The notes below the pieces were generated by a model, which saw nothing but the letters and a program-made list of their open reading frames with translations, made no database searches and was not told the origin of the DNA. From Candidatus Melainabacteria bacterium (lineage in GTDB: Bacteria > Cyanobacteriota > Vampirovibrionia > LMEP-6097), in the NCBI GenBank assembly GCA_005110385.1, contig DUDT01000013.1, forward strand, positions 22,136 to 86,135: a stretch of DNA of 64,000 nucleotides, in the 5' to 3' direction. The position numbers and the translations under genes were made by a program. The number at the start of each line of letters is the position of its first letter. Position 1 is the stretch's first letter. Shown piece after piece: positions 8,693-47,815 of the stretch.

Positions 8693-8750
8693 GGGGCGTA
8701 TAGCGGAACTCCAATTTCTGCGTTTTCGTCGTCCACATGATCCTCATGTA
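8693..8750 (-). repeat. Half copy of the dispersed palindromic element
   Basis: Reverse complement TACATGAGGATCATGTGGACGACGAAAACGCAGAAATTGGAGTTCCGCTATACGCCCC matches the right half of the copies at 14810 and 47691; lies between convergent rplY and rluD. Confidence 0.92.
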
Positions 8751-8759
8751 AGCTTGCTA

Positions 8760-9725
8760 TTAGTGTAGATTTTCTTCGAGAAAGCTTAGGGAAGTTTTAA
8801 AATCTTCCGCGAGATCTATTTCAAATTTAAATCTTTCCTCTGTAATAGGATGAGTAAACTCTAACTTATATGAATGCAAAAGCGGTCTATATGCTTTTAG
8901 TTTATTTTTCTCTATACCGTAAACAGCATCACCAATAATGGGATGCTTTATATAATTCATATGAACACGAATCTGATGAGTTCTACCTGTGTCTAATTTA
9001 CATTCAAGCAGTGTAAAAGGATCTTGAGAAGCTTTATACCTATATCTCTTTAATAACTGCCAGTTGGTCTTCGCATATCTAGCGTGTTCTAACGTTTCAA
9101 AAGTCCGCATTCTTTTTCTATCATTAGGATCACGCCCAATGGGTTTAATCACCGAGCCGCTAGTTTCTTTTAAGTTTCCTAACACTAAAGCCTGATAATA
9201 TCTTTCTACTTCCCGACTCTTAATCTGTTCTGCTAAGCGCCTATGGGCTAAATCATTTTTACAAGCAAGCATCAAACCAGTGGTATCTTTATCAAGACGG
9301 TGTACTATACCAGGTCTTAAAACACCATTAATTTGGGATAGACTATCCTTGCAGTGGTACAAAAGAGCATTTACTAAAGTACCATTCACAGTATTAGCAG
9401 AGGGATGCACCACTAAACCAGCCTGCTTATTTAAAACTAAAAGATACTCATCTTCAAAGATAATATCCAAAGGAATAGCCTCTGGCAATATATCTAAAAT
9501 CCTTGGCGGTGGCAGATTAATAGATATCGCATCGCTGTTCTTAACTTTATGAGAAGCCTTTACGGACTTAGCGTTCAGTAAAATCTTTCCACCGTCAATT
9601 AAAGTCCCAATAAAGGATCTAGTTAAATTGAGCGATTCGAGCCCAGCTAAATAAACATCAAGCCTAACAGCTACAGATAATTCTGAAACTATTATATTTA
9701 TCTGATTATCAAGACTGTTAGACAT
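8760..9725 (-). CDS. rluD: RluA/RluD family pseudouridine synthase
   Basis: S4 domain, GIVHRLDKDTTG, TGRTHQIRVH. Confidence 0.93.
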   Translation of the reverse strand: MSNSLDNQINIIVSELSVAVRLDVYLAGLESLNLTRSFIGTLIDGGKILLNAKSVKASHKVKNSDAISINLPPPRILDILPEAIPLDIIFEDEYLLVLNKQAGLVVHPSANTVNGTLVNALLYHCKDSLSQINGVLRPGIVHRLDKDTTGLMLACKNDLAHRRLAEQIKSREVERYYQALVLGNLKETSGSVIKPIGRDPNDRKRMRTFETLEHARYAKTNWQLLKRYRYKASQDPFTLLECKLDTGRTHQIRVHMNYIKHPIIGDAVYGIEKNKLKAYRPLLHSYKLEFTHPITEERFKFEIDLAEDFKTSLSFLEENLH

Positions 9726-9824
9726 CCACTAGCAAGCTGATTCTAGCATTTCATATAAACCCAGCACTAACAAATCTTCACTTCACTCGAAGAATGATTA
9801 TCTCAATACTAAAATTTCTAAAAA

Positions 9825-10199
9825 TTATTTAGATCCTAATACACTTTCTAGATCGGAAATTAAATTATCAAAAGCCAAATATGCCGTCGAACTTTCCTCG
9901 TAATTCTGAGAGTGCCTTATGGAATCATATCCAGCAGAAGTAAGCATAGCGTTTAAGGACACATCTCGCTTAAACTTACTCATATCTCTTAGAGCTTTTA
10001 ACTCACTGCGCCTAGCCAACACCTCATCTTTATTCTCAGAACGAACAGCTTCACTAAAAAAATTAATCAATCGGTCTCTCTCCTCTCGAGATAAGCCTTC
10101 TCTAAAATCCTCAGTATTTATAAACCCGAACTCGTCTGACTCAGAATCATAAGGAATTCCTTGATATTGATTTATGGAAGAATTATAAACGTAAACCAT
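9825..10199 (-). CDS. Hypothetical protein
   Basis: 124-aa ORF filling the gap; no recognised motif. Confidence 0.6.
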   Translation of the reverse strand: MVYVYNSSINQYQGIPYDSESDEFGFINTEDFREGLSREERDRLINFFSEAVRSENKDEVLARRSELKALRDMSKFKRDVSLNAMLTSAGYDSIRHSQNYEESSTAYLAFDNLISDLESVLGSK

Positions 10200-10289
10200 A
10201 AGGAAACAGCTCTTAGGCTTATGGATATCAAAAAAAAATAAAGGCTAAGTTAAGAAAAAATCAGCAGATTATAAGTAAGTCAAGAAAAT

Positions 10290-10502
10290 CTATTGAGCGA
10301 CTTTTTTCTTTGCGTATTTCTTAGTAAATGTATCTATTCTACCAGCAGCATCTATAATCTTATTAGTACCTGCGTAAAAAGGATGACAGTTACTACAAAC
10401 TTCAACCCTTAGAGATGGTTCAGTAGACTCCACTAAAAACTCAGCACCACAGGTACAAGTAGCAACGATAACATGGGTCTCTGGGTGTATGTTTTGCTTC
10501 AT
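10290..10502 (-). CDS. rpmE: 50S ribosomal protein L31 (Zn-binding type)
   Basis: MKQNIHP..CTCG..CSNCHPFY. Confidence 0.97.
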   Translation of the reverse strand: MKQNIHPETHVIVATCTCGAEFLVESTEPSLRVEVCSNCHPFYAGTNKIIDAAGRIDTFTKKYAKKKVAQ

Positions 10503-10547
10503 AGGACTTTAGATTTTAACACGCAAATATACTAAACTCAATTAGTT

Positions 10548-10871
10548 TTATTTTTCATTAAGGAAGTTCTTGGCTAAAGATTTATATTTCTCTACCTGCT
10601 GTAAAAGCTTTTTATTTAAGTTTATAGAAGCTTCTGCTTCTTTATAAAGCTGATCTAACTCTAGCTCAAGATCTTTTATGCGATTGTGATTCTTCTCATT
10701 TTCAAACTGTAAATTCTTGACTGATATTTCAAGAAACTCAATATTTCTTGAATGTTTTGCAAAGCCGGGGTCATCTTTAAGCTCCGTAATGAATCTAGTC
10801 GTGTCTTCATAAGAAGAAGAAAAGAGGCCAGAAAAACCACTCAAGTCATCAAAATCATCACCAATTTTCAC
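10548..10871 (-). CDS. Hypothetical coiled-coil protein
   Basis: GTG start, heptad-rich; TGTTAAGAT extended -10 just upstream. Confidence 0.65.
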   Translation of the reverse strand: MKIGDDFDDLSGFSGLFSSSYEDTTRFITELKDDPGFAKHSRNIEFLEISVKNLQFENEKNHNRIKDLELELDQLYKEAEASINLNKKLLQQVEKYKSLAKNFLNEK

Positions 10872-10946
10872 TATTTCAGAATCTTAACAAATTTAAGCTA
10901 GTAGTTTTCTTGCTAAATATTAAGAGATCAATTAAAATTTCTGAGT

Positions 10947-11786
10947 ATGACTCTTGAAGATCACAACAGCAGCCAGCTTTATTTATCCAATGAAGCCCAA
11001 GAAAGTAAAGAAATATTCTCAAGCCTTTTGGGTGATATTAAATCGGAGCTTAAAGTTTTAGCCGAGAAACAGGAACATAAAGTTTCTCCGGAATTTAGTG
11101 CCTTAATGGATGGTTATGTTATCAAAGCCAATGAGAGTGAGACGTTAAGAGTTAAGTATCAACATGTGGAAAATCACTATGAAGAACTTAAACTAGAGCT
11201 AAAAACACAGAAAGCACAAAATCGCCAACTCGGTTCTGACCTCGATTCAGTGCGTGAAGCATTGAAACTGTCTGAATTAGAGCTATCTAAATTCAAAAGA
11301 GATTTCGATCACACTAGACAAGACTTTCAAGACAAATCTGATTCTTTACAAAATGAGAAAGAAGCCTTACTCAGAAAAATAAAAGATTTAATGACTTGGA
11401 AAGAGACAACTGAGCAACTTTGTAATGACATGAAAGCAGAGCTTGTTGAATATAATCACAAAATCAAGCAACTTCAACAAGAAAATTTAATCGAAAAACA
11501 GACAGCTGAAAGAAGCCTCAGAGAGGATCAAAAAATCATTCAAGAACTCAAAGAGCAGCTTGAACTCAGAGAGAGAGAAGCTAGTTACAAAAATGCACTT
11601 ATCGAACAGCTTGTTAGACAGACCGCCCAAGCTAATGGTCATAGCTCAATCAACGATATCAATAGTGTTTTAAAAGGGATGGGCAATTTCCCGTCCGCAA
11701 ATGCCAATCCAGAAAGCACTTATGGCAATAACGGTGACGATGACGAGACTACTAAAAAATTCAAATGGGGAGCTTTCAGGCTTTAA
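10947..11786 (+). CDS. Hypothetical coiled-coil protein
   Basis: Long heptad region; short KKFKWGAFRL tail could be a membrane-targeting helix. Confidence 0.75.
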   Translation: MTLEDHNSSQLYLSNEAQESKEIFSSLLGDIKSELKVLAEKQEHKVSPEFSALMDGYVIKANESETLRVKYQHVENHYEELKLELKTQKAQNRQLGSDLDSVREALKLSELELSKFKRDFDHTRQDFQDKSDSLQNEKEALLRKIKDLMTWKETTEQLCNDMKAELVEYNHKIKQLQQENLIEKQTAERSLREDQKIIQELKEQLELREREASYKNALIEQLVRQTAQANGHSSINDINSVLKGMGNFPSANANPESTYGNNGDDDETTKKFKWGAFRL

Positions 11787-11795
11787 ATTCATGGC

Positions 11796-12932
11796 TTGCC
11801 AATGCTAGTCTATCCTCCAGAAGGACATGATACTGATAGTAAGAGAATTTTTGTGCTTGGCTCTGCTAAGTCGTTTTGTTTAATAAACGATTCTAATATT
11901 AGGCTTGAAGGAAATGGTAATTTCTGCAAATTAATCCAACTTAAGCTTGGTGAAAATAAAATAAAAATCAATATAGACGGCAACTCCCTTACTCGCACTA
12001 TTTATGCTTTCCCTAATCCTAATAAAAATCCAAGCCCTATAGCTTATGCTCGCCCTTACCAAGCTTTTAGCAAAGGCATAAAGCTAGACAATATCTTACA
12101 GAGCATCTTAATAAGTAATAAAGATATTGCCATCCCATTGAACTCACTCCCAGACTACACACTAGAAAAAATTAACGCTTATAACTACAGATTGAATTTA
12201 AGTATTGTCGAACAAGATTTAGACTGGATTCACTATTCAGATTTAAATCCTGAAATAAAAATAGAAAAAATCTCAGATACGGTCTTTGATATTAGATTTC
12301 AAAAGCCCGTAAGCAAGTACAAAATTCTATTTAATAACCATGTTTTCAAGATATCTTTTACCTTTAAAGTAAAGCCTTTTCTCATTTGCATAGACCCTGG
12401 CCACGGCGGCTCTCAATTTGGAGCTATCTCCCCGAAAGGCATATTTGAAAAAGATTTAAATTTAAGCCTAGCTATAAAACTGGCAGCAGAATTAAATCAT
12501 CAAGGAGTAAAAACCATACTTACTCGGAATCATGATATGGAGAAGAGTTTAAGTGAACGTGTAAAGATCTCTAAGAAAAATAATTGCAATTTATTTATTT
12601 CCCTACACCATAACGCGCTGCCAGACGGCAGAGATCCAAATAAAGAAAGTGGTTTCTCCTGTCATTATTTCCATGAACATAGCTTTGAGCTCGCCAAGTT
12701 TATTTCCCTTAAACTAAAAGCCGCATCTTTACAGCATTTTGCTGGAATTTATAAACAAAATCTTCACGTACTTAGAGAAAACCCTGATACCCCAAGTGTT
12801 TTAATCGAGCTTGGGTATCTTATTCATCCACTAGAGTCAGATTTGCTCTGCAAAAAAAGCTTTCAAACTAAAACTGCTCGAATATTAGCTAAGGCGTTGT
12901 TAGAATTCCATAGAAGTCAAAATTTTCAATGA
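11796..12932 (+). CDS. N-acetylmuramoyl-L-alanine amidase (Amidase_3)
   Basis: IDPGHGG, EKDLNL, FISLHHNA, VLIELGY. Confidence 0.92.
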   Translation: MPMLVYPPEGHDTDSKRIFVLGSAKSFCLINDSNIRLEGNGNFCKLIQLKLGENKIKINIDGNSLTRTIYAFPNPNKNPSPIAYARPYQAFSKGIKLDNILQSILISNKDIAIPLNSLPDYTLEKINAYNYRLNLSIVEQDLDWIHYSDLNPEIKIEKISDTVFDIRFQKPVSKYKILFNNHVFKISFTFKVKPFLICIDPGHGGSQFGAISPKGIFEKDLNLSLAIKLAAELNHQGVKTILTRNHDMEKSLSERVKISKKNNCNLFISLHHNALPDGRDPNKESGFSCHYFHEHSFELAKFISLKLKAASLQHFAGIYKQNLHVLRENPDTPSVLIELGYLIHPLESDLLCKKSFQTKTARILAKALLEFHRSQNFQ

Positions 12933-13029
12933 ATCATCAATTAATGCTTTAAAAACATAAAATCTTCACTATTAAATAAAAAAACGTTTAAGTCACTAGC
13001 GTATTGTAAAATAGTAATAATATATCATC

Positions 13030-14538
13030 ATGTCAGCTTATTTCGATGCACTAATCATCGGTTCAGGTATTGCAGGGCTTAATCTTGCAAGGAAGCTTGC
13101 ACAAGCAGGGCAGACAGTTTTTGTATGCTCAAAAGAAGCAGTAACAGAGGGTTCTAGTAAATATGCACAAGGCGGTGTAGCTGTAGTTAGTCCTTGGAAC
13201 CCAGAAGATAAACTTGAAAGTCACATCCAAGATACTTTAAGTGCTGGAAAAGGTCTATGTGATTCTAAAATAGTGGAAGCTGTTCTAAGTAATGCTTGGG
13301 AGCGAGTAGAGGAATTTATTGGTTTAGGAGTTAAATTTGATAAAGATTTTTACCTAGAAGGATCTCACAGCTTTAAAAGGGTTTTACATGTAGCTGATGC
13401 CACTGGCAGGGCGTTATTAAAGCCATTATTAGATAATGTCTCTTGTAATCTTAATATAGCGATTTCCCAAGGAACTGAAGCTATTTCACTTTTAAAAAAC
13501 GGTGATGAAGTAGTCGGAGCTAGACTAAAGACTGTTTCTGGAGAACTTTTTGACATAAACGCAGCTCAAACTATTTTAGCCACTGGTGGCTTTGCCTCTC
13601 TATATAAAGATCACACTACGCCTCGTATTTTAACAGGAGACGGTCTTGCACTTGCTTATGCTGCCGGAGCAGCCCTAGAAAACCTAGAATTCATACAGTT
13701 TCACCCCACCGTTTTTTTTAATGGCTCTAAGCCATTTTTAATTTCAGAAGTCGTAAGAGGAGCTGGAGCTGTACTTAAAAACATTTTCAAACAGAGCTTT
13801 ATGGAAGCCTATGATATTAAAGCTGAACTGGCGACAAGGGACATAGTCAGTAGGGCAATAGCCGAAGAAATGAAAAAGACTGAAGCTGATTATGTCTATT
13901 TAGACATGACTTACTGGTCTAAAAAAGATTTAGAGGAGAAATTCCCAAATATTTACCATCACTGCGAGTTAAGTGGTTACGATCTTAGCCAAGACCTTCT
14001 GCCTGTACGCCCCGCAGCTCACTACTGCATCGGAGGTATCAAGACTGATATTCATGGCAGAACTAATGTAAAAGGCCTTTATGCTATCGGTGAATGTGCC
14101 TATACTGGCTTACATGGAGCTAATCGACTAGCGAGTAATTCATTACTCGAGTGCATAGTAATGCCAGAGTTTTTAGCTAATTCCATTCTAGGTACCGAAT
14201 TTACTAAATCTAATAGACCAGGAGAACCCTGCGAAGATGTAAATGCTGCGCTAAGCTACAGTGAAATCAATGCTGAAGAAGAAAACCTGAAAAATATTCA
14301 AAACATTATGACCAAAGGTCTTGGCATCGAAAGAAATGCAAATGAATTAAAAAGCTGCTTGAATGATCTAAAAAACTGCACTGAAGCAAGTAAAGCAAGA
14401 GTGGTCGCGGAATTAGCCTTCGAATCTGCTCTTAAGCGTGAAGAAAGTAGAGGCTGTCATTTTCGCAGTGATTTTCCTAAAGCTAATTCAAAATATATAA
14501 ACAATACCCTAATTCAGAAATCATTAAAAACCCACTGA
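13030..14538 (+). CDS. nadB: L-aspartate oxidase
   Basis: GSGIAG, YAQGG, EFIQFHPT, GLHGANRLASNSLLEC, REESRGCHFRSDFP. Confidence 0.95.
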   Translation: MSAYFDALIIGSGIAGLNLARKLAQAGQTVFVCSKEAVTEGSSKYAQGGVAVVSPWNPEDKLESHIQDTLSAGKGLCDSKIVEAVLSNAWERVEEFIGLGVKFDKDFYLEGSHSFKRVLHVADATGRALLKPLLDNVSCNLNIAISQGTEAISLLKNGDEVVGARLKTVSGELFDINAAQTILATGGFASLYKDHTTPRILTGDGLALAYAAGAALENLEFIQFHPTVFFNGSKPFLISEVVRGAGAVLKNIFKQSFMEAYDIKAELATRDIVSRAIAEEMKKTEADYVYLDMTYWSKKDLEEKFPNIYHHCELSGYDLSQDLLPVRPAAHYCIGGIKTDIHGRTNVKGLYAIGECAYTGLHGANRLASNSLLECIVMPEFLANSILGTEFTKSNRPGEPCEDVNAALSYSEINAEEENLKNIQNIMTKGLGIERNANELKSCLNDLKNCTEASKARVVAELAFESALKREESRGCHFRSDFPKANSKYINNTLIQKSLKTH

Positions 14539-14576
14539 TTATCAACTAGTTCACGCTAAAATATAACGCAGAGATT

Positions 14577-16190
14577 ATGCCCTTAAACGCCTTTCCTAAA
14601 GTAAAAACCAGAATAGCACCTAGCCCAACAGGTAATCTTCACTTAGGTACCGTCAGAACAGCTCTCTATAACGTGCTTTTCGCTAAAAAGCACCAAGGTG
14701 AATTTTTCTTTAGACTTGAAGATACTGATAGACAAAGAAGTGAAGAACAGTTTACTCAAGAAATCTTAGAAGGTTTTAAATGGTTAAATATCTCTTGGGA
14801 TAAGCCAGGAGGACGTGTAACCGAACGAACAAGTTCAAGGCTAAGGAGGACGAATGACCGCAGTGTACTGGGTGTACATGAGGATCATAAGGACGACGAA
14901 AACGCAGAAATTGGAGTTCCGTTACACGCCCCAGAAACTCTCATAGGCTTAGGTGAAGATGGGATAGTCAGACAATCCCTCAGAGAAGCTGTGCATAACA
15001 GTTATATAGAAAGATTAATTAACGAGGGTAAAGCTTATAGATGCTTTGCGACAGTAGAAGAATTAGACGCTATGCGTGAAGCTCAGAAAGCTCGTAAAGA
15101 GATAGAAAAATATGATAATCGCTCAAGAGCTATTTCCAAAGATGATTCAGAAAAATTATTTAGAGAAGGTAAACCATATGTTGTTAGATTAAATCTAGGT
15201 GAAGATCACGTGATCACTTGGCTGGATTTAATCAGGGGTGAAGTATCCATTAATACTAAAGATCTAGGTGGAGACCCAGTTATTCAGAAATCTACAGGGC
15301 AGGTTCTCTATAATTTTGCAGTAGTGATAGATGACTATGAAATGCAGATCTCACATATCCTGAGAGGAGAAGATCATATAAGTAACACAGCGAAACAGAT
15401 CGCTATTTATGAAGCTTTAGATTTTCCTATTCCCGAATTCGGTCACCTGCCTTTAATTTTCACGAAAGATAAACAGAAGCTCTCTAAACGTAAACATGGT
15501 GATATCGCTTCAGTTAAGACTTATCAAGCACAAGGCTATTTAGCAGAGGCACTAGTGAACTATCTTTTGGGCACTAGTTATAATTCAGCGAAATATGGTG
15601 AAATATTTACTATCCCTGAAGCTGCTGAAGATTTCGAAATAACTAGTGTTAGTAAAAGCCCGGCTATCTATGATATTCAAAAATTAAACTGGTATAACCG
15701 TGACTACATAAGTAAACTAAACTACCAAGAAATATTAACTTATGTTTCGAGATTTTCAAAATTCGATTTGGAAAATAGCTCTCTGTTCAATTCATCTCAA
15801 ATCCAGTCAATAATTGAATCTACTAAAGAAAGTCTTGATAAATTTGAACAGATAGATGAACATATTAACTATTTTTTTGAAGATTTTAAACTTAATGATA
15901 TTACTTTAGTTACGATCGCCGAAGAAGGTAAAGAAGTTATCCATGAATTCATATCCCTTATCGAAAGTGGTTCTCTAGATTTTACTGATCAAAATTCAAT
16001 TAAAAATGGTATTAATGCTATTGGTGCAAAATTAAACCTCAAAGGCAAAAAACTATTTTTCCCAATTCGTGTAGCCATTAGTGCAAAAACTAGTGGGCCT
16101 GAACTAGGATTTATCGCAGTACTTTTAGGTAAAGAGAAGATCGTCGAAAGATTAAATTTAGCCTTACTAGAAACCTCACACAGACACTAA
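14577..16190 (+). CDS. gltX: Glutamate--tRNA ligase with an in-frame palindromic insertion
   Basis: RIAPSPTGNLHLG, LEDTD, RGEDH, KLSKR; ~41 extra residues after ISWD. Confidence 0.97.
   Translation: MPLNAFPKVKTRIAPSPTGNLHLGTVRTALYNVLFAKKHQGEFFFRLEDTDRQRSEEQFTQEILEGFKWLNISWDKPGGRVTERTSSRLRRTNDRSVLGVHEDHKDDENAEIGVPLHAPETLIGLGEDGIVRQSLREAVHNSYIERLINEGKAYRCFATVEELDAMREAQKARKEIEKYDNRSRAISKDDSEKLFREGKPYVVRLNLGEDHVITWLDLIRGEVSINTKDLGGDPVIQKSTGQVLYNFAVVIDDYEMQISHILRGEDHISNTAKQIAIYEALDFPIPEFGHLPLIFTKDKQKLSKRKHGDIASVKTYQAQGYLAEALVNYLLGTSYNSAKYGEIFTIPEAAEDFEITSVSKSPAIYDIQKLNWYNRDYISKLNYQEILTYVSRFSKFDLENSSLFNSSQIQSIIESTKESLDKFEQIDEHINYFFEDFKLNDITLVTIAEEGKEVIHEFISLIESGSLDFTDQNSIKNGINAIGAKLNLKGKKLFFPIRVAISAKTSGPELGFIAVLLGKEKIVERLNLALLETSHRH
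14810..14932 (+). mobile_element. Full-length palindromic element (MITE/RPE-like) inserted in frame in gltX
   Basis: Terminal inverted repeat GGACGTGTAACCGAAC / GTTCCGTTACACGCCC; highly similar to the copy at 47691-47815. Confidence 0.88.
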
Positions 16191-16191
16191 T

Positions 16192-17214: not shown

Positions 17215-17246
17215 GAATTCAGGTTTTATAAAGTAGACTTAAGTTA

Positions 17247-18167: not shown

Positions 18168-19996
18168 GTAAAATAACCAACCAAACAAGAAGAATTCTTA
18201 AATCTAGCAGCGGTGAAATCAAGACCGTTACTAAGACGATTAAGCACGACTCTAGTCAAATAACTTATGATCCAAGCAAAAAAGTAAAAGTAATTGCCCT
18301 TGGTGGTTTATTTGAAATCGGAAAAAATACTTGGATCTTTGAATGTGGTGACGATATTATGCTTGTCGATGCTGGACTCGCCTTCCCGACAGCAAGCATG
18401 ATAGGAGTAGATATAGTACTTCCTAAAATTAATTATTTAGTCGCTAACAAAGATCGCATCAGAGGCATGATAGTGACCCATGGTCATGAAGATCATATTG
18501 GCGGTATAGTACCGATGCTTAGGGAAATTAATATTCCGATTATTTATGCACCTGGTCTAGCTTATGCTTTAATTCAAAGTAAACTCAAAGAAGCGAATAT
18601 ACTACACCAAAAGATGGTCTGGACTAAAGCTAGAGATAGAGTACAGATTGGTCAACATTTTTCAGTTCAATATATAAGAAATAATCATAGTATCGCAGAT
18701 AGCTACTGCCTAATCATCGATACACCAGCAGGCAGAATCGTACATAGTGGTGATTTTAAATTCGACCACAGCCCAGTAGAGAACCAGTATTTCGACATTC
18801 GCAGCTTAGCTGCGGCTGGAGAGTCTGGCGTAGACCTGCTTATAAGCGATAGCACCAATGCAGAAAGAGCTGGCTATACACCATCAGAAAAAGCTGTTAT
18901 ACCTAAGCTTAAAGAAATGATCTTTAATTCTAAAAAGAAATTATTTATCACGACCTTTGCAAGCCAAGTAAGTCGTGTGAAAATCGTCTTACAGCTTGCT
19001 CTGCAAGCTAATAAGAAAGTAACCATATTTGGTAGATCGATGGTTAACCTCGCTAATATCTCTAAGGAACTGGGTTTCATTTCCATACCTGATAATTTCA
19101 TAATCAAGCAAGAAGAAGTTAATAAAATCCCTCCAGAAGATCTAGTTATCTTGACGACAGGCAGTCAGGGAGAGCAGTTCGCAGCCCTTTCTCGTATCGC
19201 CCGTAATGAGCATAAATACGTAAAAATACAAGCTGGAGATCAAGTGCTGATAAGTGCTTCACCCATACCAGGTAATGAAAAATCTGTTAACCATCTAATA
19301 GATAGTTTATTTGCTCGCGGTGCTGATGTTATCTATGGACTAGGCCAAACTATTCATGTCTCTGGCCACGCTAGCCAAGAAGAACAGAAAATGCTTTTAA
19401 ATCTCTGCAAACCAGTTAACTTTATGCCTTGTCACGGTGAATATCGAATGCTGCTTAAGCATGGTGAAACTGGGATGAAATGCGGAGTTAATCCAGACAA
19501 TATTTTCGTACTTGACAACGGCGATATTCTTGAGATGCAGGATGGTAAATGTTCTATTAAAGAGAGAGTCGATTCTGGTATAGTTCTGGTCGATAACGAC
19601 AATGTCGGCAGGCTGGATGAGGACATCATCCTAGAAAGAAAAATGATCTTAAGTGATGGTTTTATATTAATCGTTGTTAACATTAACGCTTACGGTCAGT
19701 ACAGCGCTGAGCCTAAATTAAATACCAAGGGTATACTGCTACCGCTTGGTTTTAATGAAAAAAGCTTTAAAAAAGAACTGATCAGCTTAACTCACGAAGC
19801 ACTTGAAAGCATTATAGATAAAGAAAAGCCATCTTCTATAGACAATTTAGATAAGTTTTCACTAAAACTACAGAGCATTATTTCTTCTAAAATTTATAAT
19901 TTCCTTGATAATAGAACTCGTAGATATCCACTGCTTGAAGTTGTGGTTTTAGGTAATCATGGTGCGGTAAAACCCGTAGTCGCTGGTTTAAACTAG
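18164..19996 (+). CDS. rnj: Ribonuclease J; start inferred at CTG 18164
   Basis: THGHEDHIG, HVSGH, PCHGEYR; conserved ALGGLFEIGKN lies in frame upstream of the ORF-track ATG at 18359. Confidence 0.93.
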   Translation: MSKITNQTRRILKSSSGEIKTVTKTIKHDSSQITYDPSKKVKVIALGGLFEIGKNTWIFECGDDIMLVDAGLAFPTASMIGVDIVLPKINYLVANKDRIRGMIVTHGHEDHIGGIVPMLREINIPIIYAPGLAYALIQSKLKEANILHQKMVWTKARDRVQIGQHFSVQYIRNNHSIADSYCLIIDTPAGRIVHSGDFKFDHSPVENQYFDIRSLAAAGESGVDLLISDSTNAERAGYTPSEKAVIPKLKEMIFNSKKKLFITTFASQVSRVKIVLQLALQANKKVTIFGRSMVNLANISKELGFISIPDNFIIKQEEVNKIPPEDLVILTTGSQGEQFAALSRIARNEHKYVKIQAGDQVLISASPIPGNEKSVNHLIDSLFARGADVIYGLGQTIHVSGHASQEEQKMLLNLCKPVNFMPCHGEYRMLLKHGETGMKCGVNPDNIFVLDNGDILEMQDGKCSIKERVDSGIVLVDNDNVGRLDEDIILERKMILSDGFILIVVNINAYGQYSAEPKLNTKGILLPLGFNEKSFKKELISLTHEALESIIDKEKPSSIDNLDKFSLKLQSIISSKIYNFLDNRTRRYPLLEVVVLGNHGAVKPVVAGLN

Positions 19997-20055
19997 GGGA
20001 CTGCCCGCAAACTCCAATTTCTGCGTTTTCCTTGTTCGTTTGTGAGCAGTCCCCT
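19995..20055 (-). repeat. Internally deleted element copy with a different terminal stem; likely rnj 3' hairpin
   Basis: AGGGGACTGCCCGCAAAC / GTTTGTGAGCAGTCCCCT enclosing TCCAATTTCTGCGTTTTC-CTTGTTC. Confidence 0.85.
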
Positions 20056-20058
20056 TCG

Positions 20059-20102
20059 GGTACTATTACCGAACTTCAATTTCTGCGTTCAGTCATAATA
20101 CC
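20059..20102 (-). repeat. Short degenerate element copy with another stem
   Basis: GGTACTATTACCGAAC-TTCAATTTCTGC-GTTCAGTCATAATACC; imperfect stem. Confidence 0.7.
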
Positions 20103-20135
20103 GTGCTAAAATTAGGCTTTTGAGGAGTAAAACTA

Positions 20136-21173: not shown

Positions 21174-21198
21174 TTTTTAAATTATTAAAAAATAATAC

Positions 21199-21240
21199 AA
21201 AATCACCTTGAAATGTGTTAATATATTTTAAGGTGATTTT
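21199..21240 (+). terminator. Hairpin after fbaA that also covers the RBS of the next ORF
   Basis: AAAATCACCTT..AAGGTGATTTT inverted repeat, extendable with G-U pairs. Confidence 0.55.
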
Positions 21241-21243
21241 ATT

Positions 21244-24024: not shown

Positions 24025-24042
24025 TCTAAATCAGTAAAAAGC

Positions 24043-24106
24043 ACTGTTGCCGAACTTTAATTTCTGCATTTTCGCCCAGCCTTGAACTTGCATATTCGGC
24101 AACAGT
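24043..24106 (-). repeat. Internally deleted element copy with a fourth stem type
   Basis: Perfect 12-bp IR ACTGTTGCCGAA / TTCGGCAACAGT; interior reverse complement CAAGTTCAAGGCTGGGCGAAAATGCAGAAATTAAAG matches both ends of the element core. Confidence 0.85.
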
Positions 24107-31873: not shown

Positions 31874-31900
31874 AATTCAGTAAATATCAAAATAATTCAG

Positions 31901-34634: not shown

Positions 34635-34635
34635 A

Positions 34636-35814: not shown

Positions 35815-35825
35815 AATCAAAAAAA

Positions 35826-38223: not shown

Positions 38224-38267
38224 AATTTAGTGATTCAAAGTATAAATCTTATCATTAATAAAAAGAC

Positions 38268-39461: not shown

Positions 39462-39475
39462 GAGCTAATTACATT

Positions 39476-40354
39476 TTAGCTCAGTTTAGCAGCCTTATCC
39501 TTCTGTGCCTGAAGATACATGGAATATAATAAATTACCAGTCTCAGAAATAGTCGCAGAAAGGTTACCGGTTAAATTCCGTGCATCATCGTTCCCCTCTA
39601 ACCATGGCGAGAATGAATTCACCAAACTATCCAAGAAAAATGCGGCACCCATCTTCTTAATAAATTTATCCTTACCATTAATAACTTTATCCGCATCAGC
39701 TACCATACCTACGACAGACCTAGACCAGCGAATTAATTTATGTATGAATAAATTAAGCTTTTCACCTCTACCAAAAACCATGCCATAAAAGAATGGCAAA
39801 GAAAACCCTGGAACCACAGTTAATCTTGAAAAATGCTTAAATTTATCTTTACCAGCCTGAATCTCCCTTAAAGAGTGCTTCATCATAGTTTTCATATTCT
39901 TAAAAATAGAAGACAAATGATCCATTCGATTCCGAGACTGTGTTTTATGCTCCTCTACGTCAGGATTCTCTTGAAAAAACTCACGAGTCTGCTTATCAAG
40001 AGAATTATAAGCAGCTAAAAGTCCAGTAAAAAAAGGTAAATTAGAGACGTGTCCAGCAAGCATCTTCATCATTGGACTTAGCTCTGCTATTCCACGCCAA
40101 AAATTCTCTGGTTCTGCCAGCTTTTTAATTGCATTTAAAGCTAGAGGTATTGGACTTAGATATTTAGAATAAGTACTCGCTATATTTACGACCAAATCCT
40201 TATGAATACTAAGCATTGGGATATCTCTACCTGAAAGCCCAGAACCAGATGCAGTCGCAGCAGCTATATGCGACGTCGCTCCAAAAGCTGCAAGCCCAAA
40301 TTTGGCTTTATTAATAAACGGTTCCGCCGCCGATAGTGTAGCGCTGAGTTTCAT
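39476..40354 (-). CDS. Hypothetical helical membrane-associated protein
   Basis: 292-aa ORF; weak resemblance to the ORF at the right edge. Confidence 0.7.
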   Translation of the reverse strand: MKLSATLSAAEPFINKAKFGLAAFGATSHIAAATASGSGLSGRDIPMLSIHKDLVVNIASTYSKYLSPIPLALNAIKKLAEPENFWRGIAELSPMMKMLAGHVSNLPFFTGLLAAYNSLDKQTREFFQENPDVEEHKTQSRNRMDHLSSIFKNMKTMMKHSLREIQAGKDKFKHFSRLTVVPGFSLPFFYGMVFGRGEKLNLFIHKLIRWSRSVVGMVADADKVINGKDKFIKKMGAAFFLDSLVNSFSPWLEGNDDARNLTGNLSATISETGNLLYSMYLQAQKDKAAKLS

Positions 40355-40478
40355 TAATTTAAGACATTATTCGCCCATTATGTCTTAACATTTTAGCAAA
40401 TTGGTATTACACTTAACATAAAATCTAATAACTAATTAACTCTTAAGCCATAAGTTATATACTAAGCATACTGAACAC

Positions 40479-42368: not shown

Positions 42369-42421
42369 TGAATCGCCTGAAAGTAATTTTTTGACTATAT
42401 GCAAATGATAAAATTAGTTTT

Positions 42422-42793
42422 ATGAATCATAAAGCTAAAAACGTGCTTGGTGGAGAATTAAAACCATGCTGTTACGAACCAATGACGGGTTACTTCAGAG
42501 ACGGGTTTTGCCATACCGATAATAGTGATTATGGTAATCATACTGTCTGCGTTATCGTTAGTGATGAATTTTTAACTTACAGTAAAGCTATGGGTAATGA
42601 CCTCAGTACGCCTTTTCCTGAATATAATTTCCCTGGACTGAAACAAGGTGATAAATGGTGCCTATGCGCGGCTCGCTGGCAACAGGCTTTTTTAGACGGC
42701 TTCGCTCCAGATGTGGTTCTTGAAGCTACCCACGAGAATTGTTTAGAAAACATAATGCTCGAAGATCTAAAATCCCACAGCTATGTCTCATGA
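42422..42793 (+). CDS. DUF2237 family protein
   Basis: NVLGGEL..PMTGYFRDGFC..GNDLSTP..GDKWCLCAARW. Confidence 0.92.
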   Translation: MNHKAKNVLGGELKPCCYEPMTGYFRDGFCHTDNSDYGNHTVCVIVSDEFLTYSKAMGNDLSTPFPEYNFPGLKQGDKWCLCAARWQQAFLDGFAPDVVLEATHENCLENIMLEDLKSHSYVS

Positions 42794-44136
42794 AGATATT
42801 ACACACCTCTGATTGGCATATCGGACGCACACTTTATGACAGAAAAAGATATGACGAGTTTGAAAATTTTTTCATTTGGTTATTAAACACTCTTGATTCT
42901 GAGAATATAGACGTCTTATTAATCGCTGGTGATATTTTTGATACGGGAACTCCTAGTAATAAAGCACAGGAATTATATTATAAATTTCTTTGTAATGTCA
43001 ACAAAACGAAGTGCCAGCACATAGTCATCATAGGTGGAAACCATGACTCAGCTTCATTTTTAAATGCTCCACAAAGCATCTTGAAATCCCTAGATGTACA
43101 CGTAGTGGGAGCTATCTCAGATAACCTAGAAGACGAGATTATTATTTTAGATATTTTAAAAACGCCAAATACAGATCTAGAGAGAATTACAAATAATATA
43201 CCAAGTTCAGAAATTTCAAAATTAATAATATGTGCTGTTCCCTATCTTAGAGATAAGGATATTAGAACAGTAAGTGCGGGCGAGAGTCTAGAAGATAAAG
43301 CCCAGAACTTAATTCAAGGTATTAAAAAACATTACTCTGCGGTAGCTGAACTAGCTTTAAAAAAACGAAACGAAATTTATAAAGAGTGTATGGGTAAAAA
43401 ACCAGCATATATTCCAATAATTGGCACAGGCCACCTTTTTGCAGCTGGCGGTATCGCTGGAGATGGAGTTAGAGATCTTTACGTAGGTTCTCTTGCTTAT
43501 GTAAATATCGAAGCCTTCCCGAAATGCTTTGACTATGTAGCACTAGGTCACTTACACATAGCTCAATCGCTAGGAGGCACTGAACATATACGCTACAGCG
43601 GCTCCCCTATTCCCATGGGTTTTGGAGAGGCTAAACAGATAAAAAAGCTGATAACGATAGATTTTCCAGAAAATAAACCTGAGAATCACATTCACCAAGA
43701 GCCATGCCTAGCTGGCTCTCCAGTAAAACCTTCTATTAATGAAGTGAGTATTCCGAATTTTCAAATGCTAGAAAGAATTAGTGGTAATTTAGATCATATA
43801 ACTCAAAAAATAAAAGAGCTAAAGACAAATCATAGTAATGCTTGGCTTGAAATAGAATACACGGGTTTAGAAATAATTCCAGATCTAAAAATTAGACTAG
43901 ATGAAGCTATCCTAGAATCAAATTTAGAAGTTAGAAGAATAAAAAATAAAAGAATTAGTGAAAACATTATAAAGCCTTACTTTAGTCAAGAGAATCTCAA
44001 AGATCTAAATCCAAATGAAGTTTTCGACAAATGTCTTGAAATAAACAAAGTAGAGGAAGCTGATAGGATCTTACTTAAAGCTAGCTATCAAGAAATTTTA
44101 AACTCAATCCTAGAGGAAGATTTACGGGCATCTTAA
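42790..44136 (+). CDS. sbcD: Exonuclease SbcCD subunit D
   Basis: MKILHTSDWHIG, AGDIFD, GNHDS, ALGHLH, YSGSP; ATGA overlap with the upstream gene. Confidence 0.95.
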   Translation: MKILHTSDWHIGRTLYDRKRYDEFENFFIWLLNTLDSENIDVLLIAGDIFDTGTPSNKAQELYYKFLCNVNKTKCQHIVIIGGNHDSASFLNAPQSILKSLDVHVVGAISDNLEDEIIILDILKTPNTDLERITNNIPSSEISKLIICAVPYLRDKDIRTVSAGESLEDKAQNLIQGIKKHYSAVAELALKKRNEIYKECMGKKPAYIPIIGTGHLFAAGGIAGDGVRDLYVGSLAYVNIEAFPKCFDYVALGHLHIAQSLGGTEHIRYSGSPIPMGFGEAKQIKKLITIDFPENKPENHIHQEPCLAGSPVKPSINEVSIPNFQMLERISGNLDHITQKIKELKTNHSNAWLEIEYTGLEIIPDLKIRLDEAILESNLEVRRIKNKRISENIIKPYFSQENLKDLNPNEVFDKCLEINKVEEADRILLKASYQEILNSILEEDLRAS

Positions 44137-44139
44137 TTC

Positions 44140-47100
44140 ATGAAAATATTAGAATTACGATTTAAAAATCTTAATTCATTAGTCGGTGAATGGCTAATAG
44201 ATTTTAATGCCCCAGAATATATTAGTGATGGGATATTTGCTATCACTGGTGCTACGGGAGTTGGTAAAACTACCATTCTAGACGCTATCTGCCTTGCGTT
44301 ATATGGGGAGACACCAAGATTAGGAAAAATCACCAAATCCTCAAATGAAATAATATCGAGACAAACCGCTGAATGCTTTGCTGAGATTTGCTTTGAGACC
44401 AAAGAAGGTCAATTTCGCTGTATCTGGAGTCAGCACCGATCTCGTAAAAAAGCTGATGGTGACTTGCAAGCACCTAAACATGAAATATCTAATGCTACTA
44501 CTGGTCAAATCCTAGAATCTAAAATCAAAGACGTAGACAGTATCATAAGAACCAAAATAGGCATGGACTTTAAACAGTTCACGCGCTCCATTTTACTAGC
44601 TCAAGGTGGCTTTGCAGCTTTCCTTCACGCTAAAACAAATGAGCGCGCCTCTATCCTAGAGCAGATTACAGGTACAGAAATTTACACGAATATCTCAATG
44701 CGCATTCATGAAAGGCGTAGCAGTGAACTAAGAAAACTAGAACTCTTGAAAAGTGAACTATCTAGTATAGAACTTCTAAGTGAAGAAGCCTTTATTGAAA
44801 AGGAACTAGCATTAAATAAAAGCGAAGAAACAGAAAAAACTTTAAATAAAGAGATTGATGTTTTAGAAGAATTTATTGATAGATTTAAAAAAATAGCGAC
44901 CCTAAAAGAATCCTTAACCCAGTCAGAGAAAAGGCTTAGCGAGCATAACGCTGCATTAGAAAAAAATCAAGCAGAGGAACTTAGAAATATTACAGAAAGA
45001 ATATTCTCAAGAAAAAAAGAATTAGAAGCTAATAAGGAGAAGCTTTTCAAGCTTAATATTAGTCTAATAAATGCAGTAGAATATTTAGAAAAAAATAAGC
45101 AAGATGAAATATTAATCTCTGAGTTAAGTGCTATCAAAGACTCTTTCTTGCATTATCAAGAACTATCCAAGACCAAAGAAGAAAAAAATAAATATCTTGT
45201 AAAACTAGATCACGAACTAAGTAGTCATAGAACGCTTTACACGCAAGCATCTCAATCCAGGGATGAGAAAAATAAATTAAAAGATAAGCTAGTAGAAGCT
45301 TTACCTAAAATCAAAGAAAATCAATTTAGACTACTAAATATTAAAAAGTCACTATTGGAGACGCAAATCAAGAATGAAAAAAACAACTTAGAATCTCTCA
45401 CAGAAAAGCTTAAAATAGCTGAAGAACAAAAAAATATTTTAAATGATCTAATAGAGAATTTAGAATTAGAAAGGATATTATTAAATAAAATTTCTGACTT
45501 AGAAGCAGAGCGACAAAAACTAGAAGAAGCAAAACCTTGTCCTCTCTGTGGTTCCACTAATCACCCCTATGCAAAAGGCGACTTACCCCTTTTAAATAAA
45601 GAGTTCGAGCAAAAATTCACAGAAGCTAAAAATAAATTTCAAAATGCAGGGCTAAATATCATAAGCCTAGAGAAGGAGAAAATAAGTCTAGAAAAGGATT
45701 TAGAATACTCCTCAAAAGAATTAAACTCATGTCTTTTACTAATACAAACAGAAAAAGATAAATTCGAATATCAAAGCAAAGATTTCATTAGCTACACTAG
45801 TGATAACATAAACCCTGAAAACAGCTCTATATCTAGTTTAGACAAAACCTCTAAAGATTTAGAAAATTTAAAAATAGAAGAAGAAAATTTATTAAATACT
45901 AAGAATAAATTAATTAGCGAGATAGAAATAGAGAATAATAAACTTAATAAACTTAAAGACGAAGGCCTGAAAATGAGTAGTGAACTTAAGCTTGGTCAAG
46001 AAAGGGTTTCAGAAATAGAAAAACAAATCCTCTCAATGAAAGGATTGTTAGCACTAAGACTCGAACCATTTAAATTAAGTTTATTCAACACTTCCAAAGA
46101 GACTGAGGATAAGGAAAACGTAGAAATTGAAGCTTGCGAGCAGCCTCTAGAGGAGACTGATATAGAACAAATATTACACAAGCTAGAAGATAAATTAAAT
46201 AATTACAATCAAGAGTTACGAATCAAGAATGAATCAGAGTCTCTGATTATCAAAATAAATGACGAGAATGAAAATATTCATACGAAGATTAAAACTATTT
46301 ATGAAGAACACCTTGAACTTAAAACTTCTATCGAAGAAAAACTAAAAAACTTAGAAAGCAAGCAAGCTTCTACAGAATTTTTAATGCAAAAAAACTTAGA
46401 GGAATTAGAACAGGAATACAAACAAATAATCCGTACAAAACAAAACTTAGAAAAAGACAAATACAGCACAGAAGTAAACATCAATACTCTAAATCAAGAT
46501 TTACAAAAATTACTTCAAACTGTGCAGCAGCCTCTAGAAGAAGGGACTACAGTAAATGAAAATCAATTTAATGAATTAATCTCTGAGAAGAATTTATTAA
46601 CAGAGCAAAAAAGAAATCTCCTCGAAGAAATCGGTAGCTTAAAAAGAGAATTAAAACATAATCTAGAAGCCAAAGATAAATATCTTGAAAAAACTAATTC
46701 TATAGAAGCTCAGCAAAAAGAATATGCACGCTTTGATAAATTACATAGCTTAATCGGTCACTCTGAAGGAAAGAAATATAGAGAATTTGTACAAGCACTT
46801 AGCTTTGAGATGGTTATACATCATGCTAATAAACAATTAGAGAGTATGTTTGATCGTTATTTATTAATCATGGACAAGGATATGCCCTTAGAGCTTAATG
46901 TCATAGATAACTATCAAGCTGGCGAGATACGCAGTACTAAAAATCTTTCAGGCGGTGAAAGCTTTATCATAAGCCTTGCTCTTGCCCTAGGCTTATCTAA
47001 AATAGTGAGTTCCAAGGTAAATGTAGACTCACTCTTTTTAGATGAAGGCTTCGGCACTCTAGATTCAGAAGCTCTAGAAATAGCTTTAGAAACTCTATCC

Positions 47101-47250
47101 AATTTAAAACAAACTGGCAAGCTTATCGGCATCATCTCCCACATGGAAGCTCTCAAGGAAAGGATTCCTACTCAAATTAAGGTGGAGAGTGTATCTGGAG
47201 GTAGAAGTGTGCTTAGTGGTGCTGGGGTGAAAAATATTAGGGGTATGTAG
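44140..47250 (+). CDS. sbcC: Exonuclease SbcCD subunit C
   Basis: GATGVGKT, CPLCGS zinc hook, LSGGE, FLDEGFG. Confidence 0.96.
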   Translation: MKILELRFKNLNSLVGEWLIDFNAPEYISDGIFAITGATGVGKTTILDAICLALYGETPRLGKITKSSNEIISRQTAECFAEICFETKEGQFRCIWSQHRSRKKADGDLQAPKHEISNATTGQILESKIKDVDSIIRTKIGMDFKQFTRSILLAQGGFAAFLHAKTNERASILEQITGTEIYTNISMRIHERRSSELRKLELLKSELSSIELLSEEAFIEKELALNKSEETEKTLNKEIDVLEEFIDRFKKIATLKESLTQSEKRLSEHNAALEKNQAEELRNITERIFSRKKELEANKEKLFKLNISLINAVEYLEKNKQDEILISELSAIKDSFLHYQELSKTKEEKNKYLVKLDHELSSHRTLYTQASQSRDEKNKLKDKLVEALPKIKENQFRLLNIKKSLLETQIKNEKNNLESLTEKLKIAEEQKNILNDLIENLELERILLNKISDLEAERQKLEEAKPCPLCGSTNHPYAKGDLPLLNKEFEQKFTEAKNKFQNAGLNIISLEKEKISLEKDLEYSSKELNSCLLLIQTEKDKFEYQSKDFISYTSDNINPENSSISSLDKTSKDLENLKIEEENLLNTKNKLISEIEIENNKLNKLKDEGLKMSSELKLGQERVSEIEKQILSMKGLLALRLEPFKLSLFNTSKETEDKENVEIEACEQPLEETDIEQILHKLEDKLNNYNQELRIKNESESLIIKINDENENIHTKIKTIYEEHLELKTSIEEKLKNLESKQASTEFLMQKNLEELEQEYKQIIRTKQNLEKDKYSTEVNINTLNQDLQKLLQTVQQPLEEGTTVNENQFNELISEKNLLTEQKRNLLEEIGSLKRELKHNLEAKDKYLEKTNSIEAQQKEYARFDKLHSLIGHSEGKKYREFVQALSFEMVIHHANKQLESMFDRYLLIMDKDMPLELNVIDNYQAGEIRSTKNLSGGESFIISLALALGLSKIVSSKVNVDSLFLDEGFGTLDSEALEIALETLSNLKQTGKLIGIISHMEALKERIPTQIKVESVSGGRSVLSGAGVKNIRGM

Positions 47251-47263
47251 AGGCTACACACCC
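47241..47263. repeat. Stem-only hairpin resembling the element's terminal repeat; contains the sbcC stop codon
   Basis: GGGTATGTAG-AGG-CTACACACCC versus GGGCGTGTAGC..GCTACACGCCC. Confidence 0.45.
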
Positions 47264-47265
47264 TC

Positions 47266-47655
47266 TTATCCTCGACTAACATAAAACCATTTAGCATCTA
47301 TCTTTTTAAAATAACTCCTTTCCTGCATAAAACTCTTTCTCTTAGCCTTTTTGAAAAAAGCCTTGAATTCGACAAAGCCATCATCGTCAGACTCTAAACC
47401 TCGTTCTTTATCTATAATTTCTAGAGATAGCCATTCTAAATCTTTTTCAAAATTTAAAAACTTGGGTCTAAAATCTTCGTGCCAAGTTTTTAGAAGATAG
47501 TCTCTGAACTTAAAGACATAAGCCGAATAGCGCGAACGCATTAAAGCTTCTGCAGTAGGAGCTTTTAAGAGGCCATCGTGTAAAAACTTACAGCAAAAAA
47601 CATATCTCTTACTAGAACCGCAGGGACAAGTGTTTTCAGCACAGTCTTCGCTCAT
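47266..47655 (-). CDS. ychJ: YchJ family (SEC-C / UPF0225) protein
   Basis: CPCGS..CC..TAEALMRSRYSAY..ERSYF..WFY. Confidence 0.92.
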   Translation of the reverse strand: MSEDCAENTCPCGSSKRYVFCCKFLHDGLLKAPTAEALMRSRYSAYVFKFRDYLLKTWHEDFRPKFLNFEKDLEWLSLEIIDKERGLESDDDGFVEFKAFFKKAKRKSFMQERSYFKKIDAKWFYVSRG

Positions 47656-47690
47656 ATCAAGAATAATACCAGAAAAATTATCCTTCTAAT

Positions 47691-47815
47691 TTGGGCGTGT
47701 AGCCAAGCGAACAAGTTCAAGGCTGAGGAGGGTGAATGACCGCAGTGCACTAGGTGTGCATGAGGATCATGAGGACGACGAAAACGCAGAAATTGGAGTT
47801 TCGCTACACGCCCAA
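47691..47815 (+). mobile_element. Full-length palindromic element; supplies the last codons and stop of the 47804 gene
   Basis: Perfect 13-bp TIR TTGGGCGTGTAGC / GCTACACGCCCAA; core highly similar to the gltX insertion. Confidence 0.88.

Follow-up and report, generated by a model that had tools for sequence, protein, structure and literature searches.

A 121-bp element of Vampirovibrionia with a conserved core and co-varying terminal arms, probably a non-autonomous transposon

The 64,000-nt stretch of Candidatus Melainabacteria DNA analysed here (the window; G000:C13:22136-86135) holds two full copies and five remnants of one family of short repeats, in which a conserved interior is enclosed by terminal stems that vary from copy to copy while keeping their complementarity. 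Comparison with further copies across the source genome and other metagenome-assembled genomes (MAGs) reveals that the element inserts as a 121-bp unit with both of its arms, duplicating 5 AT-rich target bases, and that the copies persisting within genes all occupy a single sense frame (..EDHEDDENAEIGV.. in translation). We consider it probable that the element is a non-autonomous transposon, i.e., a transposable element of the miniature inverted-repeat kind (MITE), with the stems as its 16-bp terminal inverted repeats and an IS5/IS1182-like insertion sequence (IS) as its mobiliser.

The source genome, G000, is a 1.91-Mb assembly of 25 contigs with ~36% G+C and 88.5% completeness. It contains 201 matches at up to 3 mismatches to a 21-mer of the core, GAAAACGCAGAAATTGGAGTT (43 of them exact), and a profile search yielded 206 matches covering 0.71% of the genome, comprising 57 full, 113 3'-only, 29 5'-only, and 7 internal matches. 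The exact 21-mer is also present in genomes titled Vampirovibrionia, Candidatus Caenarcaniphilales, or Cyanobacteria MAGs, as well as in one labelled Proteobacteria. From G000 and 114 loci of five other MAGs we drew 106 distinct full copies, of which 103 are 121 bp long; the other three were left out of the stem counts. The element is laid out as a 16-nt 5' arm, an 89-nt core, and a 16-nt 3' arm, with terminal inverted repeats of the form G-N12-AAC ... GTT-N12-C, the complementarity of which stops after 16-17 nt. The core holds an apical hairpin (GTGTAC-loop-GTACAT) with a variable loop and, on the sense strand, mostly a G.T closing pair (48 of 53 copies), and the whole element folds into a single long imperfect hairpin. 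It contains no transposase gene, its sole open frame being a 40-amino-acid (aa) read-through peptide without a family match. No Rfam family matches the element, the sole sub-threshold snoRNA match adjoining it, and our literature searches found no description of this family.

The unit of insertion can be read from orthologous sites. Eighty-five of the 114 loci from other MAGs map to G000, and six clean insertions of exactly 121 nt in other MAGs correspond to sites that are empty in G000, making the element polymorphic in presence between species. Around these six inserts a pentamer is duplicated (AAGAT, TAGAA, AAAAT, CTAAA, AATAT, and ATGTA, respectively) that is single in G000, and neither arm is present in the empty sites; the possibility raised in the initial annotation, that one arm is pre-existing target sequence, is thus excluded. 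Across 53 full copies in G000, the 5-bp duplication is exact in 11 and carries one mismatch in another 11, as compared with 1.2% and 3.9% in controls. Sites at which remnants are polymorphic between MAGs (L040, L093, and L112) are not clean insertions. A fixed 5-bp target duplication points to the staggered cut of a DDE-type transposase and not the action of an HUH/RAYT-type nuclease (RAYT, repetitive extragenic palindrome-associated tyrosine transposase). Element and duplication together measure 126 bp, equal to 42 codons.

What sets the family apart is the behaviour of its stems. For the 54 full copies of G000, the two arms of one copy form 14.1 of 16 Watson-Crick pairs, versus 9.5 for arms taken from different copies. 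Aligning 53 copies shows 90.4% pairing along the 16-bp outer helix, with changes on both sides at 12 of the 16 outer pairs and at 2 of the 6 apical pairs; the observed covariation was reached by 0 of 500 shuffles, and sliding the partner arm by 1-3 columns reduced pairing to 22-54%. The complementarity of the arms is hence far above chance genome-wide, and the initial annotation was right that the interior is conserved and that, at the termini, complementarity is preserved far better than sequence. Among the 103 copies there are 59 different 5' arms and 87 different arm pairs, and Watson-Crick pairs occupy 1447 of 1648 stem positions. The first stem position is G:C in 87 of the 103 and positions 14-16 (AAC/GTT) are almost invariant, while each of positions 2-13 accepts two to four pair types, including exchanges of GC for CG and of TA for AT.

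This diversity is best described as two layers, namely repeat classes that parallel the repeats of IS variants (see below) and compensated drift inside each class. Four stem types can be recognised (A, 36 copies; B, 20; C, 30; D, 17), and 69 of the 103 copies differ from their type at no more than 3 of 32 arm positions. Counted inside each type, compensated cells number 70, representing 32 distinct variants, where ~4 would be expected under independence, next to 130 single-sided changes and 7 uncompensated doubles. Some compensated variants recur at different loci (an A:T pair at position 7 of the D type, for instance, is shared by 4 G000 copies) and must therefore have been carried by copies that transposed. 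Mismatches are inherited as well: C.C at position 12 is found in 31 copies, and A.C at positions 11 and 13 in 10 and 8 copies, respectively, so both arms are passed on as they are and not remade from each other at each insertion. These counts dispose of the suggestion that the stem is regenerated whenever the element inserts, including by template switching, which as a means of keeping the arms paired in place after insertion is still a live option. Mismatches of the G:T kind (58) are about as frequent as A:C (47), with no strand bias, giving no sign of a stem that acts at the RNA level, as had also been proposed.

Together, these data bear on whether an HUH/RAYT-type nuclease or a reverse transcriptase reads a single-stranded DNA or RNA hairpin, with the stem being remade per insertion or taken from the target, as the initial annotation had favoured. 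Such an enzyme would be in keeping with the strong co-variation of the stem, the sense-strand G.T pair closing the apical hairpin (48 of 53 copies), and the surplus of 3' over 5' remnants (113 versus 29), which superficially resembles 5' truncation. However, the 5-bp duplications are fixed and the empty sites lack both arms; stem mismatches are inherited and G:T is not in excess over A:C; full ancestral insertions gave rise by deletion to the 3' remnants seen in gltX and the L198 gene (described below); and there is no Rfam match. The Y1/RAYT domain (PF01797) was found in 0 of 7 genomes of the genus (54-93% complete) by a search that matched control genomes, RVT_1 in 1 of 5 genomes searched (G004, L134, G004:C131:2533-3093; a 512-aa frame at 51 bits), and a TnpB-type domain in 1 of 5 (G001), as a weak match. 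This mechanism is largely refuted, and we regard it as extremely unlikely.

A better candidate for the mobiliser is an IS with a transposase that matches Pfam DUF772 and DDE_Tnp_1 above their cut-offs; in NCBIfam it scores 162 bits against IS1182 (cut-off, 270) and 115 against IS5_4 (cut-off, 140), every curated IS cut-off being missed. Copies lie at many contig ends of G001, G003, and G006, with left repeat GGGACTGTTGCCAATC and right repeat GGCACTGTTGC(C/T).., which suggests that the IS is multi-copy there. One IS insertion in G006 is represented by contigs C198 and C160, which carry its two sides; the site is empty in G000:C10, and the duplication is ATAAT. The copy in G006:C198, the matching end of which is GGCACTGTTGCCAATC, agrees at 15 of 16 positions with the C-type arm GGCACTGTTGCCAAAC. 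(In an attempt at pairing IS ends via G000, a C11 site fell in a multi-copy region and was dropped.) G000 itself has a decayed 1149-bp copy of this IS in C12, with DUF772 and DDE_Tnp_1 open reading frames (ORFs) and ends GGAGACTGTTGCCAATC.. and ..GCAACAGTGCC. An intact relative of ~1.2 kb in another genus (G013), with a 328-aa transposase and the duplication TTAAA, has a perfect 16-bp repeat (GGGACTGTCGCACAAC/GTTGTGCGACAGTCCC) of the same G-N12-AAC design that is as in the D type at 12 of 16 positions, and a decayed relative in G038 ends in ..CTGCGACACGCCCC before TTAAG and matches the A-type arm at 13 of 16. The shared repeat design, the near-identity of its repeat to one stem type, and an AT-rich duplication that is likewise 5 bp long point to this IS as the mobiliser; from repeat identity and duplication length, its DDE transposase would move the element in trans.

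Other candidates fared less well. Copies of an rve-type IS are present in 4 of 5 genomes, and an unrelated 1272-bp DDE_Tnp_1 IS with repeat AGGGCTGTCTCATTCTAAAA and a 410-aa open frame was observed at L127 (G001:C50) and L128 (G006:C72); neither carries element arms or cores at its ends, and both were set aside as mobilisers. A search of G000 for a long autonomous form, taken as 5' and 3' cores 0.3-6 kb apart, gave five pairs, of which none combined matching arms with an intervening gene. The window itself contains no mobiliser, as initially reported. As for the alternative that the stems fall into a few fixed subfamilies, each tied to a known IS transposase, about half of it holds: 69 of 103 copies are near four types, three of which resemble the repeats of variants of one IS family, while the 87 arm pairs, the 70 compensated cells, and the unique stems of the sister genus do not fit such a scheme.

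Several observations weigh against a MITE moved by this IS. (i) The only IS copy found in G000, a genome that is 88.5% complete, is decayed. (ii) The relative that resembles type A is only a fragment, and from another genus. (iii) In this genus the left and right repeats of the IS do not match each other perfectly, implying that its transposase does not demand matched ends. (iv) Outside the 16-bp repeat, no similarity was observed between the ends of the IS and the element core (p 0.37-0.97 versus shuffles), so the IS does not explain the conservation of the core, and its interior is ruled out as the source of that core. (v) In a sister genus (G018, G037, and G038), an exact 5-bp duplication flanks only 1 of 26 copies at the boundaries as set here, and the stems, nearly unique per copy, are mostly unlike any IS repeat. 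(vi) Compensated changes have arisen at orthologous copies after insertion, for which fit to a transposase is alone insufficient. Compensation within types, the changes between orthologues, and the sister-genus stems thus need something more, be it pairing of the two ends at transposition or template switching from arm to arm.

Orthologous copies make the last of these points concrete. At the gltX copy, G001 and G000 differ on both sides at three stem pairs, two of them adjacent, and on one side at one further position. Between the copies in G018:C8 and G037:C1, four stem pairs differ, all of them compensated, and two internal mismatches are common to both (from the alignment). In this second pair the core is ~6% different (counted on the alignment) versus 19% across 2.7 kb of flank. 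Over 10 orthologous pairs, leaving out L039, where an indel shifts the register, and L113, where the flanks are not orthologous, identity in the core, with the 21-mer excluded, is 96.9% (688 of 710 positions) versus 93.2% for the flanks (1829 of 1962; Fisher p 2e-4), with the arms at 94.7%. The two gltX pairs, which were not chosen via the 21-mer, have cores at 90-92% and flanks at 93-94%, so the conservation of core above flank is only moderately firm. Orthologues at L039 have exchanged the apical hairpin, and at L074 the core variant has switched while the D-type arms were kept. Both variants are present in other copies, and swaps of this kind are the pattern expected from ectopic gene conversion of the interior. 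The sister-genus version of the family is diverged, with a recognisable core and arms that are essentially unique per copy yet complementary, 17 of 26 copies having a stem score of at least 13. At loci L189-L218 of that genus we also observed a second pair of core blocks that varies together, with GCTGAGG occurring, for example, with GACGACGAAAAC and GCTTTCG with GACGAGAATAAC; we could not match these blocks to a simple helix.

These comparisons lend weight to a reading in which the element is an ordinary MITE and pairing is kept in place by mutation bias, through template switching between the arms or repair of the hairpin, combined with gene conversion of the core among ~200 copies. It would account for the compensated changes at orthologues (three pairs in gltX, four between G018 and G037), the strand-symmetric mismatch spectrum, the mosaic swaps of core between orthologues, and a core at 96.9% above flanks at 93.2% in 10 pairs, with arms (94.7%) like the flanks. 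Published work on template switching, as far as those papers bear on hairpins and inverted repeats, describes it as creating and maintaining hairpins and homogenising inverted-repeat arms (PMC8794818, PMC8604942, PMC5941160), as this reading would have it. The same process would nonetheless have left C.C and A.C mismatches uncorrected in 31, 10, and 8 copies; single-sided changes (130 cells) exceed compensated ones (70 cells); the arms would have to meet across ~89 nt; the conservation of the core in place leans partly on ascertained pairs, with gltX as the counterexample; and an appearance of change in place could arise if different copies insert repeatedly into the same hot spot. We treat this reading as a genuine contender that is on balance doubtful.

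Alternatively, pairing may itself be the signal, such that the same DDE transposase or another enzyme would move a fold-back hairpin or cruciform whose arms join into one duplex end; the terminal G, the inner AAC/GTT, and the core would alone be read as sequence, leaving positions 2-13 to evolve in the manner of an RNA stem. Position 1 varies little and positions 14-16 are near-fixed while the positions between them vary in pair type. The compensated variants common to several loci are, for that reason, present in active copies, and within types the 32 distinct compensated variants compare with 6 uncompensated doubles. Even the unique stems of the sister genus score at least 13 in 17 of 26 copies, and the element folds whole as a long imperfect hairpin. 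On the other side, we know of no DDE transposase that requires its ends to pair, the repeats of the partner IS are imperfect, single stem mismatches are inherited and tolerated, the resemblance of the stem types in this genus to IS repeats points to reading of sequence, and compensated changes at fixed orthologous copies are not selectable via transposition. Pairing as the signal is in our judgement decidedly unlikely. Somewhat broader, and rather unlikely as well, is the notion of a DDE mini-transposon with ends constrained to pair, handled as a fold-back hairpin either when moving or when persisting, in which the terminal repeats would evolve like an RNA stem, so far that almost every sister-genus copy has a stem of its own, and a core unrelated to the partner IS would be read as sequence.

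For the IS-mobilised MITE that we favour, a scheme can be drawn up as follows. Copies would overwrite each other's interiors by ectopic gene conversion, a process that could not reach the copy-specific arms and that would be part of the reason for the uniform core. The arms would keep their complementarity through the need of both ends to suit a single transposase, through repair of mismatches by template switching from arm to arm, or through both.

Residence inside genes follows a strict rule. Ninety-four of the 201 21-mer matches lie in long open frames, all of them in sense frame 0 (reading ENAEIGV) and 0 in the other five frames, for each of which random positions give ~13%; 18 of the 54 full copies in G000 lie in long open frames, again all in frame 0. 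The sense frame is open in 91 of 103 copies and the antisense frame from the last base of the element in 74 of 103, yet 0 antisense copies are found in genes, so the bias in frame does not come from stop codons alone. The gltX insertion (host gene, TIGR00464 at 495 bits) can be followed across the genus, being full in G000, G004, and G001, reduced by an internal loss of 93 nt in G005 and G006, and represented by the 3' arm only in G003. The sister-genus L198 gene provides a second case of a 3' remnant derived by deletion from a full insertion, and these two orthologue series indicate that remnants arise by in-frame deletion of full inserts. The idea of the 3' remnants as a separately mobile mini-element is accordingly not supported. 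In G000, 3'-only remnants (113) are ~4 times as numerous as 5'-only ones (29), most being the 21-mer and arm alone, and an acidic 3' peptide may be better tolerated than a basic 5' peptide. One translated 40-aa copy matched 0 Pfam families.

Placement also speaks to whether core and stem form a functional module at host level, e.g., a protein-binding or transcript-stabilising hairpin, that is selected at each locus. The core is above its flanks in conservation in most orthologous pairs, including the ~6% versus 19% divergence between G018 and G037, and stems are retained at old copies, as selection would predict. Copies are nonetheless placed anywhere (within genes, between convergent genes, and at gene ends), presence differs between close species, insertions decay to remnants by deletion, and the single surviving frame in genes looks like tolerance rather than function. 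We accordingly rate a host-level module as very unlikely.

Within the window, the 21-mer has 6 matches at up to 3 mismatches (0 in any of 100 shuffles), which are exact at 8707, 14898, 20010, and 47780 and carry 3 mismatches each at 24053 and 46114; a 5' core 18-mer is confined to the two full copies. A profile built from 53 copies returned 8 matches at 7 loci, these being the six that the initial annotation had described as sharing all or part of the core and a further remnant at 46104. The loci are as follows, with stem types as above.

14811..14931, plus strand: full 121-bp copy with A-type stem GGACGTGTAACCGAAC / GTTCCGTTACACGCCC, in frame inside gltX (ORF 14577..16190); profile match 14813-14930.
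47693..47813, plus strand: full 121-bp copy with A-type stem GGGCGTGTAGCCAAGC / GTTTCGCTACACGCCC, between two minus-strand genes; profile match 47694-47812.
8695..8753, minus strand: 3' half with a single A-type arm, between convergent genes; profile match 8695-8753, profile positions 62-120.
19995..20055, minus strand: internal-deletion derivative of ~60 nt with both B-type arms, GGGACTGCTCACAAAC / GTTTGCGGGCAGTCCC, and AACGAACAAGG fused directly to AAAACGCAGAAATTGGAGTT; profile match 19998-20035.
20059..20102, minus strand: 44-nt derivative with both arms (3 mismatches between them) around only GCAGAAATTGAAGTT of the core; profile match 20060-20089.
24041..24106, minus strand: internal-deletion derivative of ~65 nt with C-type arms ACTGTTGCCGAA / TTCGGCAACAGT and both core ends; profile matches 24041-24075 with 24077-24106, profile positions 4-33 and 86-120.
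46104..46144, plus strand: decayed 3' remnant, profile positions 78-118 (E 5e-4), in frame (ENVEIEA) inside a 1036-aa ORF (44140..47250); absent from the initial annotation.

The stems at the six loci described initially are confirmed on the sequences as they were written, i.e., GGGCGTGTA(R)C at 8693, 14810, and 47691, AGGGGACTGC..GCAGTCCCCT at 19995, the imperfect GGTACTATTACC..GTCATAATACC at 20059, and the C-type arms of the ~65-nt derivative at 24043. Only the copies at 14811-14931 and 47693-47813 are complete at 121 bp. The former is flanked by the 5-bp duplication CAGGA (14806-14810) / CAGAA (14932-14936), and the latter by an exact duplication of AATTT at 47688-47692 and 47814-47818; its orthologue in another MAG (L029) is identical across the element. 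The stop codon (TAG, 47804-47806) of a 453-aa gene on the minus strand (ORF 47804..49165) lies inside the 3' arm of this second copy (GCTAC backwards), the insertion having displaced the final codons of the gene and donated its stop.

The inner end of the remnant at 8695..8753 is AAGCTTACATGAGG, a junction typical of a long variant of the element in which ~85-95 extra nt with small palindromes of their own replace the apical loop. This variant could be an older form or a nested second element, and was observed at the following positions.

G000 C24:12134, C6:56157, and C11:52579: long variant.
Loci L014, L023, L055, and L111: long variant.
Window 8695-8753: long variant.

Two further arrangements were noted. 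Tandem arrays that repeat every 126 bp (the 121-bp element and its 5-bp duplication) occur at contig ends of G000, in C13 (about 105,980-106,204), C18 (1-260), and also C12 and C14. Many full copies have, within ~10 nt upstream, a 3' remnant with the same rare arm variant, as if one had landed in the duplicated pentamer of its neighbour.

Among known systems, the closest in habit are the Rickettsia palindromic elements (RPEs), short palindromic repeats that are described as lying in frame within genes (Ogata et al. 2000, 2002; as treated in the review PMC10969869). Like RPEs, the present element is a short palindromic repeat without a transposase of its own that sits in frame in many unrelated housekeeping genes, adds a peptide to their products, and also occurs between genes. 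Unlike RPEs, its host lineage is Vampirovibrionia, and clear 5-bp duplications and a candidate partner IS are seen. At the protein level it also differs from RPE-1, two translated 40-aa copies matching 0 families at E up to 1 when compared with the NCBIfam RPE1 domain. To our knowledge, no mobiliser has been named for RPEs. Loss of palindromy has reportedly been noted for them, whereas the stems of this element are retained.

With MITEs the element shares its small size (121 bp), 16-bp terminal inverted repeats, a fixed duplication, the lack of a transposase gene, a copy number in the hundreds, and a resident IS with matching repeats. It departs from MITEs that have an IS partner in that its interior is unrelated to the IS and better conserved than the repeats, which co-vary like an RNA stem. 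A 5-bp duplication is, moreover, not usual for the IS5 subgroups. The Tn3-derived miniature elements (TIMEs) depend on a Tn3-family transposase and have 38-bp GGGG.. repeats and a 5-bp duplication; the duplication would fit, but none of the 7 genomes searched in the genus yielded the Tn3 transposase (PF01526) and the arms are complementary for no more than 16-17 nt, and a TIME identity was rejected. Integron attC sites, which are read by structure and have AAC/GTT boxes, were considered for the sake of the invariant AAC..GTT; dispersed copies with target duplications do not fit them.

Enterobacterial repetitive intergenic consensus (ERIC) elements are intergenic and transcribed, with a TA duplication, and are not known to lie inside genes. 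They are said to be imperfect palindromes of ~127 bp with compensatory substitutions between orthologous copies (an account attributed to Wilson and Sharp 2006). They resemble the present element in size, imperfect palindromy, and compensatory changes between orthologues, and differ from it by residing outside genes with a TA duplication, where this element enters genes with a 5-bp one.

REPINs and IS200/IS605-type single-strand transposition are not known to generate target duplications. REPINs are palindromic repeats mobilised by RAYTs, in which compensatory hairpin changes are described as common and singlets as remnants of doublets (Bertels and Rainey 2011, PMC3116915). Insofar as that paper portrays them, they are, like the present element, non-autonomous palindromes that form long hairpins with compensatory changes. 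On the same portrayal the layout is inverted, REPINs having conserved ends (the REP sequences) and a variable spacer where this element has variable ends and a conserved middle. REPINs go with RAYTs, whereas here RAYT genes number 0 in 7 genomes and 5-bp duplications are present.

Ultimately, this family bears on what a transposase needs from its ends. The terminal repeats of transposons are the textbook example of sequence kept so that a protein can read it, and repeats that co-vary around a conserved interior thus offer a natural test of the needs of a DDE transposase or of the replication fork, for which the family supplies natural "mutants" in their hundreds, along with dated orthologous copies and a partner transposase that can be named. 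After Rickettsia, Vampirovibrionia would also be a second lineage in which housekeeping proteins clearly incorporate selfish DNA, here with the mechanics of insertion in view. For genome annotation, inserts of 40-126 nt and donated stop codons explain odd insertions and altered C-termini in proteins of the Vampirovibrionia.

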